Positions 1 to 6,762 of a stretch of DNA of 18,599 bases are shown here, piece by piece; position 1 is the stretch's first letter, and the number at the start of each line of letters is the position of its first letter. Source of the DNA: a virus (taxonomy: Duplodnaviria > Heunggongvirae > Uroviricota > Caudoviricetes); the IMG/VR virus record IMGVR_UViG_2547132252_000005, positions 1 to 18,599 of that record, one strand, 5' to 3'. The position numbers were made by a program, and so were the translations under genes. The notes under the pieces are model-generated. The model did no database searches and had not been told where the DNA came from. It worked only from the letters and a program-made list of their open reading frames with translations.

Positions 1-154
1 TTGGCGACGATCACAATGCGATGAACTGCGCATCGCTGGCATCACCTTTAAATGCCGTCTGGCGAAGAGTGGTGATCAGTTCCTGTGGGTCGACAGAATC
101 CATGCCGACACGTTCAGCCAGCTTCCCTGCCAGCGTTGCGAGTGCTGTACTCAT
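1..154 (-). pseudogene. bet: bet (Red-beta single-strand annealing protein), 5' end; frame closes after codon 47 and the gene runs off the window
   Basis: Minus-strand ATG at 152-154 translates MSTALATLAGKLAERVGMDSVDPQELITTLRQTAFKGDASDAQFIAL then TGA at 11-13. This matches my recollection of the lambda Bet N-terminus, which continues ...FIALLIVANQYG; the -1 frame here reads IVAN, consistent with a 1-bp deletion. Below the 60-aa ORF-track threshold. Confidence 0.6.
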
Positions 155-159
155 CCGTT

Positions 160-456
160 TTATACCTCTGAATCAATATCAACCTGGTGGTGAGCAATGG
201 TTTCAACCATGTACCGGATGTGTTCTGCCATGCGCTCCTGAAACTCAACATCGTCATCAAACGCACGGGTAATGGCTTTTTTGCTGGCCCCGTGGCGTTG
301 CAAATGATCGATGCAGAGTGATTCAAACAGGTGCTGTGGAAGACCTTTTTCCATGTCGTCTGCCAGTTCTGCCTCTTTCTCTTCACGGGCAATCTGCTGG
401 TAATGACGCGCCCAGCTCTGAGCCTCAAGACGATCCTGAATGTAATAAGCGTTCAT
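160..456 (-). CDS. gam: Gam (RecBCD inhibitor), short GamS-length form
   Basis: The 98-aa [24 protein letters not shown]...HQVDIDSEV is near-identical to the lambda Gam short form as I recall it. Its stop lies 5 bp before the bet start, as in lambda. Confidence 0.9.
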
Positions 457-531
457 GGCTGAACTCCTGAAAATGGCTGTGAATATATCGCCCGCGAAAT
501 GCCGGGCTGATTAGGTAAACAGGAAAGGGGA

Positions 532-942
532 TTAGTGATTCAGGCCGTTGCCGCGTCCGTCGAGAAAAACTTCCACGAGCAAATCACGGGTATAAGTGCG
601 CTCGATGCCGCGATGCAGATAAAGCCGTCCGCGTAAATTAGCTGATGCAGTCCAGGTACCATCTTTGTGTTTGACCAGCATTCCTGGCATGACCGCACCG
701 CGATTAACGGTCTGCGTTCCGTAATGTTGATGAACCATAAAAACTCCTGCCCGTAAGCTGGGCTGCTGAACATATAGAGACTTCTGCGCGTATTCAGGCG
801 GTGGATGGCCGCCGGTTGTCATAACTAAGCCGCCTCGTTGAAGCGACTGAGGTATGAGGTGTTGAGTTGATTTCAGCTGGTCACACCGACGTTCACGCGT
901 CCGCTTCACCCCTCGCACTTCCCGGAGCCTGCTGAAATTCAA
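532..942 (-). CDS. Hypothetical protein immediately downstream of the OL/pL-like region; Arg-rich N-terminus ([15 protein letters not shown]) loosely resembling an N-type ARM; start codon uncertain
   Basis: 136-aa ORF with a TTG start in the track, same frame as gam. An internal ATG with an upstream GGAG would give a 68-aa product. An overlapping 77-aa ORF (540..773) in another frame cannot be excluded as the real gene. Confidence 0.3.
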
Positions 943-959
943 GCTGCGGATCTAAGCGG

Positions 960-1100
960 TCATCGCAACGGTGAATCAGGTGGTTGCCGTATCGTTGTGT
1001 TGTTGCGATGAATTTATTTAAAACTATAGTTGTTTTGTCGTCAACAACAAAAGTTGTTTTATTGGTTTTTTTAGATGTAAATGGTTGTATTTAGGATGGA
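960..1100 (-). promoter_or_regulatory. Candidate OL/pL operator-promoter region
   Basis: Cluster of GGTTGTT / AACAAC half-sites, including AGTTGTT-n8-AACAACA at about 1028..1049, with the same architecture as the OR palindrome at 3447..3471. The position matches lambda OL, between the rex-equivalent cassette and the leftward early genes. Confidence 0.45.
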
Positions 1101-1184
1101 TTTATTTTGTGACTTGCATCGCATAGCGATAACTGAAGCGAGGTCGTGGTGGTTTTTTGAATGGTTTGTGTGATGAGGGGGAGG

Positions 1185-1214
1185 GGCAAAAGAAAACCCG
1201 GCACGGTGGCCGGG
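1185..1214 (-). terminator. Intrinsic terminator ending the cI-cassette transcript
   Basis: Stem CCCGGC (1197-1202) / GCCGGG (1209-1214) with loop ACGGTG. On the minus strand it is followed by TTTTCTTTT (plus 1188-1196), directly after the stop of the 125-aa gene. Confidence 0.55.
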
Positions 1215-1218
1215 ATTC

Positions 1219-1596
1219 TTACGCAGGTAGGTAAAGATATGATTGTGGTGGCTTAATATTACTACCTAGAGCAGAGATAGGAATTGGTTCTTTATATCTT
1301 TCCACTTCACCAATTTTTATTGCGTAGGCCTTTTCTCTACCTGAATAATATGAGTCATAAAATTGCTTAGAAATACCTGCGTGTTTTTCCGTCTTTTTCC
1401 AAAGAGATTCCGGTTCGTCACTTAGTATTGATTCAATACGGAATTGACCAACAACTTTACCTAATGGCATCGTGGCATAAATAACAACGGTGCTAATTTG
1501 CGGATTTTTGAATATACCTTTACGAAACTCGAACCGCTTTGTTCCGTTCAATATTTTTTCTGCAAACTCAGGCTTAATGGATAATAAAACTTTCAT
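1219..1596 (-). CDS. ASCH-domain (PUA-like fold) protein, 125 aa; distal gene of the cI-linked cassette
   Basis: N-terminus MKVLLSIKPEFAEKILNGTKRFEFRK carries the ASCH hallmark (G-x-K-x-x-E-x-R after the first strand). A TEKHA motif resembles E. coli YqfB as I recall it. Its start overlaps the upstream gene by 23 nt; the region is AT-rich. Confidence 0.7.
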   Translation of the reverse strand: MKVLLSIKPEFAEKILNGTKRFEFRKGIFKNPQISTVVIYATMPLGKVVGQFRIESILSDEPESLWKKTEKHAGISKQFYDSYYSGREKAYAIKIGEVERYKEPIPISALGSNIKPPQSYLYLPA

Positions 1597-2647
1597 TTAT
1601 CTTGCCTAACTCGATGATCTTTAAGAACTGCTCATTTGTGAGTTTAAAGTGACTCCATCGGAATGCACGCGAACCATTTAGCCCCACATGATCTATTAAA
1701 ATAGCACGATTGGGTCTCTTTGGCAAAGACAGATTGTATGTGAATCTTATAATGAAAGGGTATCGACGTTCTTTATAGATTTTTCTGAGTTCATCTTCAG
1801 AAAATACGCTAAAACGAATACAATAGTCTACAAAACTATCTTCGCTTAAAAATTCAGAAATATTTTTTACGCTCTCAACTACACATAATGTACTGGCTAC
1901 AGAACGATAGCGAGCTGGCCCTTTTTTGTCTCCGGTTCTATAGATGACAATGATATCTCCTCTTTTCATTCCCATCACAGAACGCATTCCACATATGTAA
2001 ATTTTATGAATGCTGTTAGCATGGGATATATCTTTGACAATATCTGGTGATTCATTTACAAGTTTTGAATCAGGGAATAGTCTAGTGTGATATTCGGGAT
2101 AAATCGCCAGTAAATATTTGTTGGCTCTTGATGTCATTATTCGAGGGTAATCTAATAAAATATCACCATAAGGCTCATGCAAAGACCTCGCATATACAAA
2201 CTCTTTCCCGTTATGTGTTTCTTTTTCACCATGAATGTAAAATCCGTACGTTTGGAAAAGTTTTATTAGATGGACGTGTTTGTCGAAAACAGTAACATAA
2301 ATATCATCAGATTTTGATGAAAATGCATGGTCAAACGCTTTTTTTAGAAATCGTTGTCCGCGAAGGGTGCCTTTAGATTCAAATTTGAATGTTCCTATCT
2401 TTAGATGACGTCCTGGTGGGAGCGCTGGATTAATGTCATTTGCATCATCATTTTCTTTTAGATACATAAAACCTTCGATTTTATGCTTGTCATCATAGAG
2501 CACATAAGCTGATTCTCCTTCTCTGGCTTTTTTTTCTAACCAAAGAGGAAACTCTTTATAATCTTTTTTTAAAGAGTCAAAAAATGGGTCATTGTGATCA
2601 AAATCAGAGAATTTCTCATATTTTAAAGTATCCATTAAGTTCTCCAT
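1574..2647 (-). CDS. 357-aa protein with a GNAT-like N-terminal region (about residues 30-150) and a C-terminal domain of unknown function; proximal gene of the cI-linked cassette
   Basis: Long uninterrupted AT-rich ORF 68 bp downstream of the cI stop on the same strand. GNAT-like pattern: LKIGTFKF, then RGQRF (motif-A-like), then LIKLFQTYGFY. The C-terminal half (IYICGMRSVMGMKRGDIIVIYRTGD...) matches nothing I can name. Fold calls are from reading the sequence, not a profile search. Confidence 0.7.
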   Translation of the reverse strand: MENLMDTLKYEKFSDFDHNDPFFDSLKKDYKEFPLWLEKKAREGESAYVLYDDKHKIEGFMYLKENDDANDINPALPPGRHLKIGTFKFESKGTLRGQRFLKKAFDHAFSSKSDDIYVTVFDKHVHLIKLFQTYGFYIHGEKETHNGKEFVYARSLHEPYGDILLDYPRIMTSRANKYLLAIYPEYHTRLFPDSKLVNESPDIVKDISHANSIHKIYICGMRSVMGMKRGDIIVIYRTGDKKGPARYRSVASTLCVVESVKNISEFLSEDSFVDYCIRFSVFSEDELRKIYKERRYPFIIRFTYNLSLPKRPNRAILIDHVGLNGSRAFRWSHFKLTNEQFLKIIELGKINESFIIH

Positions 2648-2715
2648 TCTAAAATGAATAATTAAGTTGTTTTACTGAATGAGCACAATGCCCGGTTGAT
2701 AATTTTTAATTGGTA

Positions 2716-3405
2716 CTATCCATGCTTCCTATACGTCTGCGGCATGCTCCCAATAACTTTCCCGAAGATAAACACCCGGTTCATCTCGTCTTTCTCGATT
2801 GGGTCCCACGGTGAGTAGCTCTTGTTATCAGAGATAACCAGCAGTTTATCCTTCATCATTTGCAGGCGCTTTACATGGGCTGTGTCGTCGTACAGAAACG
2901 CATAGATACCATCACCGTCGAAAGATTTAACCGTGATATCAACGAACAGCAGATCACCAGGTTCAATCGTTCCTGACATGCTGTCACCGCGTACGTTAAT
3001 GATGCGGATATTTTCTGCCTTCCTGCCATCGAACATGTGACGAGCATCGTCAAACGAGTACTCAACCGAGCGTAGGACTTCTACAAACTCACGGTTGATG
3101 ACACCCGGCCCGGCACTCACTTCTATATCAAGAACGTCAATCTTAAAGTATTTGGAATGGCTGACAGTTGGTTGTATTGGTTGCACTGTACTGTCTGACA
3201 TATTTCCAACGCCAGAAGATAACCATTCTGCGCGCACACCCAAAGCGTTCGCGATCTCCACGATTTTAGTTGTTTGATTAGCTTTCCCTGTTTCGATTTT
3301 CTGAATAGCAGCTTGGCTAACCCCGACCAAATCCCCAAGCGCCTTTTGTGTAAGGCCTCGCGCTAATCTGGCTTCTTTAAGTCTTTCTGAGAGTGTTGTT
3401 TTCAT
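2716..3405 (-). CDS. cI: CI-type prophage repressor (N-terminal HTH, C-terminal LexA/S24 autopeptidase domain)
   Basis: 229 aa. N-terminal HTH (LTQKALGDLVGVSQAAIQKIETGK), a GDSM serine motif and a downstream KRL lysine typical of S24 self-cleaving repressors. Divergent from a cro-like gene across an operator region. Confidence 0.88.
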   Translation of the reverse strand: MKTTLSERLKEARLARGLTQKALGDLVGVSQAAIQKIETGKANQTTKIVEIANALGVRAEWLSSGVGNMSDSTVQPIQPTVSHSKYFKIDVLDIEVSAGPGVINREFVEVLRSVEYSFDDARHMFDGRKAENIRIINVRGDSMSGTIEPGDLLFVDITVKSFDGDGIYAFLYDDTAHVKRLQMMKDKLLVISDNKSYSPWDPIEKDEMNRVFIFGKVIGSMPQTYRKHG

Positions 3406-3509
3406 AGTTCAAATGTACAACCAAGGTTTTATTCCATCAAACGAAAATGGTTGTTGACTAAAAACAACCATAGTTTTAATCTTGATTCAAATTAACCACG
3501 GAGGTTGTT
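3406..3509. promoter_or_regulatory. OR region with divergent pRM/pR promoters and operator palindromes
   Basis: Near-perfect 25-bp palindrome ATGGTTGTTgactaaaAACAACCAT (3447..3471) enclosing TTGACT (3454-3459), with a TAATCT -10 candidate near 3477-3482. Further half-sites ACAACCA (about 3416-3422) and GGTTGTT (3503-3509). GGAGG sits 5 nt before the cro ATG; no SD before cI, suggesting a leaderless cI mRNA as in lambda. Confidence 0.6.
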
Positions 3510-3740
3510 ATGAACCCAGCTATTAAAACAGCGATCAATATCGTTGGTTCACAAAAGAAACTGGGCGCTGCTTGCGAAGTTTCACAGCAGGCCGTCTATA
3601 AGTGGCTTCACAACAAAGCAAAGGTATCCCCTGAACATGTCGGCAGCATTGTTACGGCTACTGGTGGAGTAGTGAAGGCACACCAGATTCGCCCGGATCT
3701 TCCGAAGTTGTTTCCACACACCGAAAAGAACGCAGCTTAA
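3510..3740 (+). CDS. cro: Cro-like HTH regulator (YdaS-like)
   Basis: 76 aa, first rightward gene at OR, with an HTH (KKLGAACEVSQQAVYKWLH) and a good RBS. Confidence 0.8.
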   Translation: MNPAIKTAINIVGSQKKLGAACEVSQQAVYKWLHNKAKVSPEHVGSIVTATGGVVKAHQIRPDLPKLFPHTEKNAA

Positions 3741-3809
3741 ATTTCCATTTCACGCTCTTTAACAATAAGCAATCAACTTAACAGTCAATTCAAACTAAAG
3801 GAGTCAATT

Positions 3810-4349
3810 ATGCAACCACTTACATACCAACAGACTAGCGGATTTAGCCCGACTGCGGTGATAAATCGTTCTCAAACAAAACAGGTGCCAGGCCACGAAA
3901 AAATCCGTGATGCCGTCCGCGCCTGGTCGGCTGAAGATAATCAGGATGTCGTTGCCACACTCATTGTGAATGAGTATCGGGAGCAGGGCGGCGGCACCAT
4001 CGATTTCCCTGATGATGTCAGCCGTGCACGCCAGAAGCTGTTCCGCTTCCTCGATAACAAATTCGATTCTGAAAAATACCGAAATAACGTGCGTGAACTG
4101 ACCCCGGCAATTCTGGCGGTACTACCGCTGGAATATCGCGGTTACCTGGTTGAGCAGGATAGCTTTATGGCTAGGTTGGCTGAAATGGAAAAGGAACTCA
4201 GTGAGGCAAAACAGGCTGTCATTCTCAACGCACCACGCCACCAGAAACTGAAGGAAATTAGTGAAGGTATTGTGTCGATGTTTCGTGTGGACCCAGATCT
4301 GGCTGGTCCACTGATGGCGATGGTCACCACCATGCTGGGGGCAATATGA
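3810..4349 (+). CDS. YdaT-family protein (CII-like regulator of Rac-type immunity regions)
   Basis: 179 aa. Motifs NEYREQGGGTIDFPDD and LTPAILAVLPLEYR parallel E. coli YdaT (EEYLRQGGGELPLVPG ... LIPAILAILPRELR) as I recall it. Sits in the cII position after cro. Confidence 0.7.
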   Translation: MQPLTYQQTSGFSPTAVINRSQTKQVPGHEKIRDAVRAWSAEDNQDVVATLIVNEYREQGGGTIDFPDDVSRARQKLFRFLDNKFDSEKYRNNVRELTPAILAVLPLEYRGYLVEQDSFMARLAEMEKELSEAKQAVILNAPRHQKLKEISEGIVSMFRVDPDLAGPLMAMVTTMLGAI

Positions 4350-5365
4350 CAGGTTCAGAAATGGCGAAAGCCGGTCTGCTGGAACAGAACCGACTTTCAG
4401 GTGCAAATCGTAACGCACTCATTGCGGGAGGAATTATGGCAAACACTGCTGAGATATTCAATTTTCCAGTGCCGGATGTGGCACAAAAGGAGCCGCGCGT
4501 GGCAGATCTCGATGATGGTTATACGCGCATTGCAAATGAGTTGCTGGAAGCTGTGATGCTGGCCGGATTAACACAGCACCAGCTTCTGGTCTTCCTGGCT
4601 GTCATGCGCAAAACATATGGCTTTAATAAAAAACTGGATTGGGTGAGCAACGAGCAACTTTCCGAATTGACCGGGATATTGCCGCACAAGTGTTCTGCTG
4701 CAAAAAGCGTTCTGGTAAAGCGTGGGATTCTTATTCAGAGCGGGCGGAATACCGGCATTAATAATGTGGTCAGTGAATGGTCAACATTACCCGAATCAGG
4801 TAAGAAAAATAAAGTTTACCTGAAAGAGGTAAATTTACCTGAATCAGGTAAAAAAAGTTTACCCAAATCAGGTAAAGACGTTTACCCGAATCAGGTAAAC
4901 ACAAAAGACAAAATAACAAAAGACAATATAAAACCTTATTCGTCCGAGAATTCTGGCGAATCCTCTGACCAGCCAGAAAACGACCTTCCTGTGGTGAAAC
5001 CGGATGCTGCGATTCAGAGCGGCAGCAAGTGGGGGACAGCAGAAGACCTGACCGCCGCAGAGTGGATGTTTGACATGGTGAAGACCATCGCGCCATCAGC
5101 CAGAAAACCGAATTTTGCAGGGTGGGCTAACGATATCCGCCTGATGCGTGAACGTGACGGACGTAACCACCGCGACATGTGCGTGCTGTTCCGCTGGGCA
5201 TGCCAGGACAACTTCTGGTCCGGTAACGTGCTAAGTCCGGCCAAACTCCGTGACAAGTGGACCCAACTCGAAATCAACCGTAACAAGCAACAGGCTGGAG
5301 TGACAGCCGGAAAATCAAAACTGGACCTGACAAACACTGACTGGATTTATGGGGTGGATTTATGA
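4346..5365 (+). CDS. O: Replication initiator O (lambdoid O-family); start codon ambiguous (4346, 4361 or the MANTAEIF Met)
   Basis: The N-terminal region (YTRIANELLEAVMLAGLTQHQLLVFLAVMRKTYGFNKK) resembles the lambda O DNA-binding domain. The gene contains the iteron array and is followed by a lambda-P homolog. Its ATG overlaps the upstream stop (ATATGA). Confidence 0.8.
   Translation: MTGSEMAKAGLLEQNRLSGANRNALIAGGIMANTAEIFNFPVPDVAQKEPRVADLDDGYTRIANELLEAVMLAGLTQHQLLVFLAVMRKTYGFNKKLDWVSNEQLSELTGILPHKCSAAKSVLVKRGILIQSGRNTGINNVVSEWSTLPESGKKNKVYLKEVNLPESGKKSLPKSGKDVYPNQVNTKDKITKDNIKPYSSENSGESSDQPENDLPVVKPDAAIQSGSKWGTAEDLTAAEWMFDMVKTIAPSARKPNFAGWANDIRLMRERDGRNHRDMCVLFRWACQDNFWSGNVLSPAKLRDKWTQLEINRNKQQAGVTAGKSKLDLTNTDWIYGVDL
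4787..4898. repeat. Replication origin: five direct 17-bp iterons (TTACCYRAATCAGGTAA type) inside O
   Basis: Iterons at about 4787, 4816, 4835, 4859 and 4882, each with internal dyad symmetry (TTACC...GGTAA), followed by an A+T-rich stretch (4899..4935). The layout is that of lambda ori within O. Confidence 0.75.
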
Positions 5366-6063
5366 AAAACATCGCCGCACAAATGGTTAACTTTGACTGT
5401 GAGCAGATGCGCCGGATCGCCAACAACATGCCGGAACAGTACGACGAAAAGCCACAGGTACAGCAGGTAGCGCAGATCATCAACGGTGTGTTCAGGCAGT
5501 TACTGGCAACTTTCCCGGCGAGCCTGGCTAACCGTGACCAGAATGAACTGAACGAAATCCGCCGCCAGTGGGTTCTGGCTTTCCGGGAAAACGGGATCAC
5601 CACAATGGAACAGGTTAACGCAGGAATGCGCGTAGCCCGTCGGCAGAATCGACCATTCCTGCCATCACCCGGGCAGTTTGTGGCCTGGTGCCGGGAAGAA
5701 GCATCCGTTAACGCCGGGCTGCCAAACGTCAGCGAGCTGGTTGATATGGTTTACGAGTATTGCCGGAAGCGTGGCCTGTATCCGGATGCAGAGTCTTATC
5801 CGTGGAAATCGAACGCGCATTACTGGTTGGTTACCAACTTGTACCAGAACATGCGGGCCAATGCGCTGACTGACGCGGAATTACGGCGCAAGGCTGCCGA
5901 TGAACTGACCTGTATGACAGCGCGAATTAACCGTGGTGAGACGATACCTGAACCAGTAAAACAACTTCCTGTTATGGGCGGTAGACCTCTAAATCGTGCA
6001 CAGGCTCTGGCGAAGATCGCAGAAATTAAAGCTAAGTTCGGACTGAAAGGAGCAAGTGTATGA
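5362..6063 (+). CDS. P: Replication protein P (DnaB helicase loader)
   Basis: 233 aa, essentially collinear with lambda P as I recall it (MKNIAAQMVNFD...AKFGLKGASV). Start overlaps the O stop. Confidence 0.92.
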   Translation: MKNIAAQMVNFDCEQMRRIANNMPEQYDEKPQVQQVAQIINGVFRQLLATFPASLANRDQNELNEIRRQWVLAFRENGITTMEQVNAGMRVARRQNRPFLPSPGQFVAWCREEASVNAGLPNVSELVDMVYEYCRKRGLYPDAESYPWKSNAHYWLVTNLYQNMRANALTDAELRRKAADELTCMTARINRGETIPEPVKQLPVMGGRPLNRAQALAKIAEIKAKFGLKGASV

Positions 6064-6362
6064 CGGGCAAAGAGGCAATTATTCATTACCTGGGGACGCA
6101 TAAGAGCTTCTGTGCACAGGACGTTGCCGCGGTAACAGGCGCAACCGTAACCAGCATAAATCAGGCTGCGGCTAAAATGGCGCGGGCAGGAATCCTGGTC
6201 GTTGATGGTAAGGTCTGGCGAACGGTGTATTACCGGTTCGCTACCAGAGAAGAACGGGAAGGAAAGGTGAGCACGAATCTGATTTTTAAGGAGTGTCGCC
6301 AGAGTGCCGCGATGAAACGGGTATTGAGGGTATATAAAAGAACATCAATGGGTACACAATGA
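6060..6362 (+). CDS. ren: Ren protein
   Basis: 100 aa; MTGKEAIIHYLGTH...VWRTVYYRFATREEREGK matches lambda Ren from memory. Overlaps the P stop. Confidence 0.88.
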   Translation: MTGKEAIIHYLGTHKSFCAQDVAAVTGATVTSINQAAAKMARAGILVVDGKVWRTVYYRFATREEREGKVSTNLIFKECRQSAAMKRVLRVYKRTSMGTQ

Positions 6363-6429
6363 TGAAACAGGTGAGTTGAGTTCAAACTGTAGTACAATTC
6401 TCTCCAGTTTGAACAGGAAAGAATATTCT

Positions 6430-6762
6430 ATGAACCCTTATATTTATCTTGGTGGTGCAATACTTGCAGAGGTCATTGGTACAACCTTAATGAAGTTTTC
6501 AGAAGGTTTTACACGGTTATGGCCATCTGTTGGTACAATTATTTGTTATTGTGCATCATTCTGGTTATTAGCTCAGACGCTGGCTTATATTCCTACAGGG
6601 ATTGCTTATGCTATCTGGTCAGGAGTCGGTATTGTCCTGATTAGCTTACTGTCATGGGGACTTTTCGGCCAACGGCTGGACCTGCCAGCCATTATAGGCA
6701 TGATGTTGATTTGTGCCGGTGTGTTGGTTATTAATTTATTGTCACGAAGCACACCACATTAA
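6430..6762 (+). CDS. emrE: EmrE small multidrug resistance (SMR) efflux transporter, 110 aa
   Basis: MNPYIYLGGAILAEVIGTTLMKFSEGF...LSRSTPH is near-identical to E. coli EmrE as I recall it. AGGAAAG RBS before the ATG at 6430. The track's 6376 start is an upstream in-frame extension. Confidence 0.92.
   Translation: MNPYIYLGGAILAEVIGTTLMKFSEGFTRLWPSVGTIICYCASFWLLAQTLAYIPTGIAYAIWSGVGIVLISLLSWGLFGQRLDLPAIIGMMLICAGVLVINLLSRSTPH

Follow-up and report, generated by a model that had tools for sequence, protein, structure and literature searches.

GevTA, a GNAT-PUA-like protein and its ASCH partner in the rex slot of a lambda-like phage: a candidate acetylation-based toxin-antitoxin pair

Results and discussion

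A catalogued two-gene cassette behind a prophage repressor

In an 18,599-nucleotide (nt) stretch of DNA from a tailed phage (Caudoviricetes; IMG/VR record IMGVR_UViG_2547132252_000005, positions 1 to 18,599; henceforth the window) we identified a two-gene cassette, gevTA, directly downstream of the gene for a cI-type repressor. Its first product, GevT, is essentially certainly a GNAT acyl-CoA transferase joined to a basic PUA-like domain of the EVE/ASCH type, and its second, GevA, is a small protein of the ASCH type. The analysis below directly establishes the domain folds, the pairing of the genes, the anatomy of the operon, the distribution of the system and its natural domain fusions. We give a probability of roughly one half to the reading that GevT would be a reader-guided acetylating toxin which, together with GevA, forms a toxin-antitoxin (TA) pair of the writer/eraser kind.

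The cassette is not new; rather, it is a correct re-identification of a system already catalogued and named, since the PADLOC candidate PDC-M11, the operon described by Bell et al. and the names GevT and GevA all precede this work. Bell, Wolf and Koonin (2020, BMC Biol, PMC7641849) reported fusions of GNAT to EVE that have an ASCH gene next to them and sometimes an AAA_17 gene, stated that no such module had been characterised at that time, and named Iyer et al. 2013 as the source of the idea that DNA bases are acetylated. In PADLOC, the models PDC-M11A (PDLC04419) and PDC-M11B match GevT and GevA over their full lengths at 2.1e-133 and 6.8e-52, respectively. The GenBank entry PV340567 (phage PhiR47_2, 99.9% identical) labels the two genes "GevT toxin" and "GevA antitoxin", and the window protein is 100% identical to this annotated GevT; the gevT region is 100% identical to that of Escherichia phage IdasGreatGrand and 99.9% identical to that of PhiR47_2. 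The two-domain protein, the downstream ASCH gene, the occasional AAA_17 gene and the location in gammaproteobacterial prophages are the same in the GNAT-EVE + ASCH operon, PDC-M11 and GevTA, and the window pair differs from them in nothing, being the identical system.

GevT couples a divergent GNAT domain to a PUA-like domain

The longest open reading frame (ORF) at this position is uninterrupted over 357 codons of the minus strand. It is a real gene and no chance ORF, given 1631 homologues in a protein collection clustered at 90% (E<=1e-3) and a family of 1872 clusters at 50% identity in an exhaustive HMMER search; a 55-residue ORF on the plus strand (2128..2295) was dismissed as spurious. 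Nearly all homologues start at Met5 of the window protein (MDxL..., 353 aa), and the ATG at 2635 is preceded, at a distance of 6 nt, by a GGAG (2642-2645), whereas no Shine-Dalgarno sequence precedes the one at 2647. The true start is therefore probably Met5 at 2635, giving a product of 353 residues. The protein matches PHROG 6345 at 1e-186, and its AlphaFold2 model has a mean predicted local distance difference test score (pLDDT) of 85.8 and a predicted template modelling score (pTM) of 0.83.

Searches with the single GevT sequence gave no Pfam match at E<=0.1 and only sub-threshold GNAT matches against NCBIfam and the sequences of the PDB, so that family profiles and structure prediction were required. 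A profile built from 39 family members recovered the GNAT protein PaiA (1tiq) at 4.1e-5 over positions 4-146; 15 of these 39 members match Pfam Acetyltransf_10 (best 2e-5), and residues 8-151 of GevT match PHROG 13728, "acetyltransferase", at 4e-24. The modelled N-terminal domain shows the GNAT alpha/beta fold (b1-a1-a2-b2-b3-b4-a3-b5-a4-b6-b7), and its nearest structures are the generic GNATs PaiA, Naa/Ard1 and RimI, AtaT and TacT-type toxins being absent from the top structural lists. An earlier reading of the sequence alone had proposed the order of GNAT elements in this half of the protein and had left its fate to structure and profile searches, both of which now uphold it. In the AlphaFold2 secondary structure AYVLYD corresponds to strand 46-51, IEGFMYLKE to strand 57-65, HLKIGTFKF to strand 81-89, and LIKLFQTYGF to helix 125-133 with the YGF turn. 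The suggestion that RGQRF marks motif A also holds, in that this segment starts helix 96-110 and overlaps the pyrophosphate loop, albeit a degenerate one. The loop reads K92-G-T-L-R-G97 as against the canonical Q/R-x-x-G-x-G/A, with only the last glycine canonical, and is followed by Q-R99-F-L-K102; among 80 diverse sequences, each of T94, G97, R99 and K102 is retained by at least 97%. The wider proposal of an acyl-transferring effector is in line with the PDC-M11A match (2e-133) and with the "GevT toxin" label in GenBank.

The C-terminal half, which the same reading had described as strand-rich and vaguely PUA-like, is indeed an independently folding, beta-rich domain when modelled separately (pLDDT 83.2), and the model displays a five- or six-stranded PUA-like beta-barrel with flanking helices. 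Among known structures it most resembles the Zymomonas ASCH protein ZmASCH (5guq; score 13.0), followed by EVE proteins at 10.4-11.4, including THYN1 bound to 5-methylcytosine (5mC) DNA, the EVE-HNH restriction enzyme VcaM4I at 10.1, YTH readers of N6-methyladenosine (m6A) at about 9, and both the N-terminal domain of McrB and the N4-acetylcytidine (ac4C) amidohydrolase YqfB at 8.6. The domain had been called unassigned, a label that no longer applies, as Bell et al. (2020) name such a domain EVE. The Pfam EVE model (PF01878) does not match the window protein and reaches 11 of 39 relatives below threshold (best E 0.016), and the domain is best described as EVE/ASCH-like. It is basic (pI 9.6 computed on residues 165-357), and its conserved candidate pocket residues are H187, D193, S194, E199, N211-S212, K215, Y217, Y236-R237-T238, Y304-N305 and R311. 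The GxKxxExR octapeptide with its Lys-Glu dyad is absent from this domain. Because the residue equivalent to the octapeptide Lys, K195, varies across the family, the domain probably lacks hydrolase activity and serves as a non-catalytic reader or as a module for binding nucleic acid. That it is a sequence paralogue of GevA is at most weakly indicated by hhalign (probability 22%, E about 1e-3), although ZmASCH is its best structural match.

GevA retains the residues of ASCH deacetylases

GevA matches Pfam ASCH at 2.5e-8, and its family profile matches ZmASCH, to which GevA is 34% identical, at 1.4e-19. Within the octapeptide K20, E23 and R25 are invariant both in a set of 31 and in a set of 80 sequences, and G18 is nearly so (at least 90%). 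Also invariant are Y40 and S119, the equivalents of Y47 and S128 that ZmASCH requires for nucleic-acid binding, and the protein is basic (pI about 9.6). GevA thus has the ASCH fold as well as the octapeptide Lys plus Glu/Thr dyad found in ac4C erasers. According to a 2026 preprint, 19 ASCH proteins, ZmASCH among them, remove ac4C from Escherichia coli tRNA in vitro, and in the GKER-type proteins TthASCH, EOLA1 and TRIP4 mutagenesis identified the Lys and Glu of the octapeptide as essential (ZmASCH was not mutated). As GevA keeps the invariant Lys-Glu dyad of these deacetylases it may reverse or neutralise an acetyl mark. The adjacency of a partner of the amide-hydrolysing type to an enzyme of the acetyl-transferring type suggests a writer/eraser pair.

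A low-GC cargo in the rexA-rexB slot

The two genes overlap, which would permit translational coupling, and gevA is followed by an intrinsic terminator (Table 1). In the 80-nt gap between cI and gevT a scan found neither a terminator-like nor a promoter-like site. The cassette is flanked by kil and gam on one side and by cro, a gene in the cII position, O, P and ren on the other, and given this gene order gevTA occupies the slot of rexA-rexB; that rexA and rexB fill this position in lambda is well established. Its GC content is about 35%, as against 45-52% in the flanks, and sister phages with nearly the same cI have in this slot three unrelated genes, one lipoprotein gene or nothing. Thus, gevTA is a low-GC variable cargo lying between the prophage repressor gene cI and a terminator, a placement from which expression in lysogens is expected. 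Within the 3' end of gevT two promoter-like hexamer pairs were noted on the minus strand (1698-1726 and 1581-1608), but shuffled sequence yields such sites at least as often, so that they provide no evidence for a separate gevA promoter; such sites within gevT, upstream of gevA, recall the internal rexB promoter of lambda. No Rfam family was matched inside the cassette.

The pair is conserved across phyla and its domains are naturally fused

To survey gene neighbourhoods we collected 80 loci (45-74% identity) from contigs chosen as one genome per species, which span Gamma-, Beta- and Alphaproteobacteria, Bacteroidota, Firmicutes, Acidobacteria, Verrucomicrobia and Campylobacterota, among others. 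A GevA homologue is encoded in 79 of the 80, and in the remaining one the contig stops so soon after gevT that no complete downstream ORF could be listed. The two genes are co-oriented and overlapping in 76 of these 79 loci, 43 of the 76 having the exact 23-nt overlap. In three Vibrio/Photobacterium loci (L013, L017 and L022) the ASCH gene is convergent on the opposite strand, at a distance exceeding 2 kb in L022. A third gene, of the AAA_17 P-loop type, is present beside the pair in 14/80 loci, integrases are found nearby in 11/80, and a CI-type repressor gene lies directly upstream in 11 other loci.

The pair is frequent in non-phage chromosomal islands. Phages carrying it comprise eight lambda-like coliphage entries (seven phages), a Helicobacter-associated phage and phages of Lactobacillus, Lacticaseibacillus and Enterococcus, as well as the P2-like SopEPhi, where it is situated between gpA and gpQ, the tin/old hotspot of P2; a distant pair is present in Methanothermobacter psiM100. 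Among 5426 complete E. coli genomes the exact cassette was detected in 275, with O157:H7 prophages among its carriers, and was chromosomal and single-copy every time. Certain loci have further features. In the Lactobacillus prophage Lj965 (L083, 3307-5402) the pair follows immediately on four tRNA genes (Ser, Glu, Tyr, Phe), a neighbourhood that may hint at a link to tRNA. In the Salmonella phage SopEPhi (L082, 5685-7233) genes for phosphoribosyltransferase-like and DprA/SLOG-like proteins, which may constitute another defence pair, come right after the GevT and GevA homologues. An Acidovorax locus (L077) has tandem GNAT-PUA + ASCH pairs of a 350-residue type and of a 481-residue type with an N-terminal extension (6010-7432 and 8017-9901), and in another locus (L046, 6004-7056) gevT is broken into two ORFs beside an intact gevA, possibly the remnant of a toxin whose partner has been kept.

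Domain fusions offer further contextual information. The exhaustive search yielded a PIN-GNAT-PUA-ASCH protein whose ASCH part is GevA-like (P0197) and a TIR-GNAT-PUA protein (P0133), and a class of fusions of about 615-635 residues has an N-terminal ASCH domain ahead of a PIN-like sequence, seen in P0241, and the GNAT-PUA core (P0210, P0241). These natural fusions indicate that the ASCH and GNAT-PUA parts act together. In terms of domain architecture, the TIR, PIN and ASCH fusions point to a tie between the GNAT-PUA core and immune effector domains, and to an immune role.

Proposed mechanism and its alternatives

The PUA-like domain of GevT would be of the kind that binds nucleic acid and holds a flipped-out or modified base. 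We propose that this reader docks GevT on a nucleic acid, DNA or, more likely, an RNA such as tRNA, where the GNAT domain would acetylate an amine, either of a nucleobase (e.g. N4 of cytidine) or of an aminoacyl group. Such acetylation would halt growth and abort infection by a superinfecting phage. In uninfected lysogens GevA would restrain GevT, most likely by hydrolysing the acetyl mark, and the superinfecting phage would upset the balance between the two. Toxicity, target and trigger, as well as the activity of GevA as an eraser, are inferred from the features described above. A role in TA or defence is likely, eraser chemistry of GevA is a minority-to-even bet, and aminoacyl-tRNA is one of several candidate targets. 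The narrower version, in which GevTA is an immune module for reversible nucleic-acid acetylation, the GNAT domain writing an N-acetyl group on a nucleobase (e.g. ac4C) of tRNA, rRNA or phage nucleic acid and the ASCH protein erasing it, is offered tentatively, as a real but minority possibility.

Several observations count against the writer/eraser proposal. The motif A of GevT is degenerate, and the position of the alpha4 Tyr (that of AFYKKMGF in PaiA) is taken by Phe131, with an invariant Tyr134 three residues on. ZmASCH, the closest characterised homologue of GevA, failed to hydrolyse free ac4C and left tRNA ac4C undiminished in vivo (2026 preprint), and an earlier report describes it as a weak RNase on single-stranded RNA. 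No GevT homologue is encoded beside ZmASCH, so that what it implies for GevA follows from homology alone; its 375-residue upstream neighbour was considered as a GevT-like partner and rejected as dissimilar to the family (hhalign E 0.82). The fusions of ASCH to the toxin fit binding or autoinhibition equally well as an eraser role, and in Lj965 the pair is upstream of the terminase genes, outside any lysogeny module. Toxicity and defence have so far been ascribed to GevTA by database annotation and by the "candidate" label in PADLOC. A literature search on GevT/GevA, PhiR47, GNAT-EVE, EVE/ASCH with defence, and PDC-M11 found no experimental functional study, PDC-M11 appearing there in a strain inventory only.

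Much of the same evidence can be arranged differently. The depositors' toxin and antitoxin annotation, the GNAT fold and coding sequences that overlap as they do in TA operons would equally suit a classical GNAT TA pair, in which GevT acetylates the alpha-amine of charged tRNA in the manner of AtaT, TacT, ItaT and KacT, the PUA-like domain serves as a tRNA handle and GevA binds the toxin stoichiometrically. Binding of tRNA is common among PUA-family domains, and Bell et al. 2020 (PMC7641849) also suggest aminoacyl-tRNA as a target; the locus with a split gevT and an intact gevA would fit, as would covalent ASCH fusions if these were autoinhibitors in cis. We nevertheless rate this arrangement as somewhat improbable.

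Were the EVE-like domain instead a reader of a modified DNA base (5mC, 5-hydroxymethylcytosine or a hypermodified phage base), the GNAT domain might acetylate a DNA base or a DNA-bound factor, making the protein a modification-dependent immune sensor or effector, a proposal attributed to Iyer et al. 2013. Such a DNA-directed function appears doubtful: YTH domains, which read m6A in RNA, and ZmASCH and YqfB, which act on RNA or a nucleoside, reach equal or higher scores, and a PIN RNase is present in many relatives. In Lj965 four phage tRNA genes immediately precede the pair and the terminase follows it, which is a lytic-cycle position, and Bell et al. 2020 (PMC7641849) also speculated on protection from host restriction-modification. 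Both would agree with a modification module that benefits the phage and is neither toxin nor defence, acetylation by GevT shielding tRNA or DNA from anticodon nucleases and restriction enzymes while GevA tunes or recycles the mark. We regard this as very unlikely, given that the window pair is part of a repressor operon, with expression expected in the lysogen, that the pair is frequent in non-phage chromosomal islands, that relatives are fused to TIR or PIN effectors, and that the genes are annotated as toxin and antitoxin.

Should GevT turn out to act as a toxin by acetylating bases or tRNA, with an ASCH protein as eraser, as in the writer/eraser proposal, acetylation would join the chemistries of bacterial immunity, and the TIR- and PIN-fused relatives would share its reader-writer core. 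The module is a common one, with more than 1800 protein clusters over bacterial phyla and some archaeal viruses, and in the window it sits in the classic exclusion slot expressed in lysogens.

Table 1. Features of the gevTA locus in the window
Feature	Position	Strand	Basis or remarks
gevT coding sequence	1574..2635 (longest ORF extends to 2647)	minus	ORF list, homologue starts, GGAG, PADLOC PDC-M11A, PHROG 6345
GNAT acyl-CoA N-acyltransferase domain	2183..2632	minus	aa ~6-155
Motif A region	2339..2380	minus	aa 90-103, ESKGTLRGQRFLKK; degenerate pyrophosphate-binding loop and start of alpha3; aligned to PaiA QKHGLG
PUA-like (EVE/ASCH-type) domain	1577..2119	minus	aa ~177-357; basic
gevA, 125-aa ASCH protein with GxKxxExR octapeptide (G18, K20, E23, R25)	1219..1596	minus	Pfam ASCH, PADLOC PDC-M11B
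Overlap of gevT 3' end and gevA 5' end, 23 nt (translational coupling)	1574..1596	minus	sequence
Intrinsic terminator hairpin (CCCGGC...GCCGGG, then T run), 5 nt past the gevA stop	1197..1214	minus	terminator scan, sequence
cI-type repressor (helix-turn-helix + S24 peptidase), directly upstream of gevT	2716..3405	minus	Pfam HTH_3, Peptidase_S24; phrog_4; PhiR47_2 annotation

Other features of the window

Beyond the cassette, the segment 943-1218 (minus strand) has no N-like gene between a PL/OL-like region (about 1000-1110) and the kil-like ORF. Operator-like inverted repeats in the PL/OL-like region resemble the repeat at 3447-3471, and the leader transcribed from PL might carry an antitermination RNA of the HK022 put type, though Rfam gave no match there. 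The genes in the cro and cII positions (3510-3740 and 3810-4349) belong to the YdaS and YdaT families, respectively, which Pfam describes as "toxin" and the phage record as Cro and cII. Past ren there is cargo resembling that of DLP12: an SMR (EmrE-like) transporter (6376-6762), a large serine recombinase related to YbcK (7018-8544), a PEBP-family protein (9009-9560) and an AraC-family regulator (9570-10367). Three phage tRNA genes (12951-13199, plus strand) are followed by the small RNA STnc100 (13312-13505, plus) and the anti-GcvB small RNA AgvB (13506-13567, minus), a set typical of lambdoid prophages of the enterohaemorrhagic E. coli type. An IS3-family insertion sequence occupies 17352-18565, with an ALIL frameshifting pseudoknot (17633-17749) and an orfB encoding an rve transposase.

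Comparison with known systems

With the type II TA toxins AtaT, TacT, ItaT, KacT and GmvT, GevT shares the GNAT fold, a presumed toxic acetylation dependent on acetyl-CoA and an overlapping two-gene operon on a mobile element. However, toxins of the AtaT/TacT type are single-domain proteins of about 170 residues, with an upstream ribbon-helix-helix or helix-turn-helix antitoxin that binds the toxin and represses the operon, whereas GevT has 353 residues, a fused PUA-like domain and a downstream ASCH partner with a hydrolase-type dyad. Assignment of GevT to the AtaT/TacT type was rejected on account of this mismatch in architecture and of the lack of any specific structural closeness. The ac4C writers TmcA and NAT10 resemble GevT in joining a GNAT domain to a nucleic-acid-binding module, but GevT lacks their helicase/ATPase module. 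GevA, for its part, compares with the ASCH amidohydrolases and ac4C erasers YqfB, TthASCH and ZmASCH; it carries the GKER octapeptide, of which the Lys and Glu are essential for removal of ac4C from tRNA in ASCH proteins of the GKER type. Among modification-dependent nucleases with a fused EVE/PUA domain, VcaM4I, PD-T4-3 and the N-terminal domain of McrB parallel GevT in fusing a PUA-like reader to an effector in an immune context, the effector being a GNAT transferase in GevT and a nuclease or GTPase in the others.

In position the counterpart is RexA/RexB of lambda, which occupies the same slot and likely follows the same expression logic, that of a low-GC two-gene cargo past cI with a terminator at its end and expression during lysogeny. 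Whereas RexB resides in the membrane, GevT and GevA are soluble predicted nucleic-acid enzymes or readers, with no similarity to the Rex proteins in sequence or fold; the Rex family is absent from the Pfam and PHROG matches of GevT and GevA, and the shared feature is the genomic position alone. With DarT/DarG, in turn, the likeness is confined to the proposed logic, in which a toxin would write a mark on nucleic acid and an antitoxin enzyme would remove it, and to the anti-phage abortive infection that we propose for GevTA. DarT is an ADP-ribosyltransferase acting on single-stranded DNA and DarG a macrodomain protein, neither being homologous to GevT or GevA. If the proposal is true, gevTA would be the acetylation counterpart of DarT/DarG and would provide the first physiological role for ASCH deacetylases of the GKER type.

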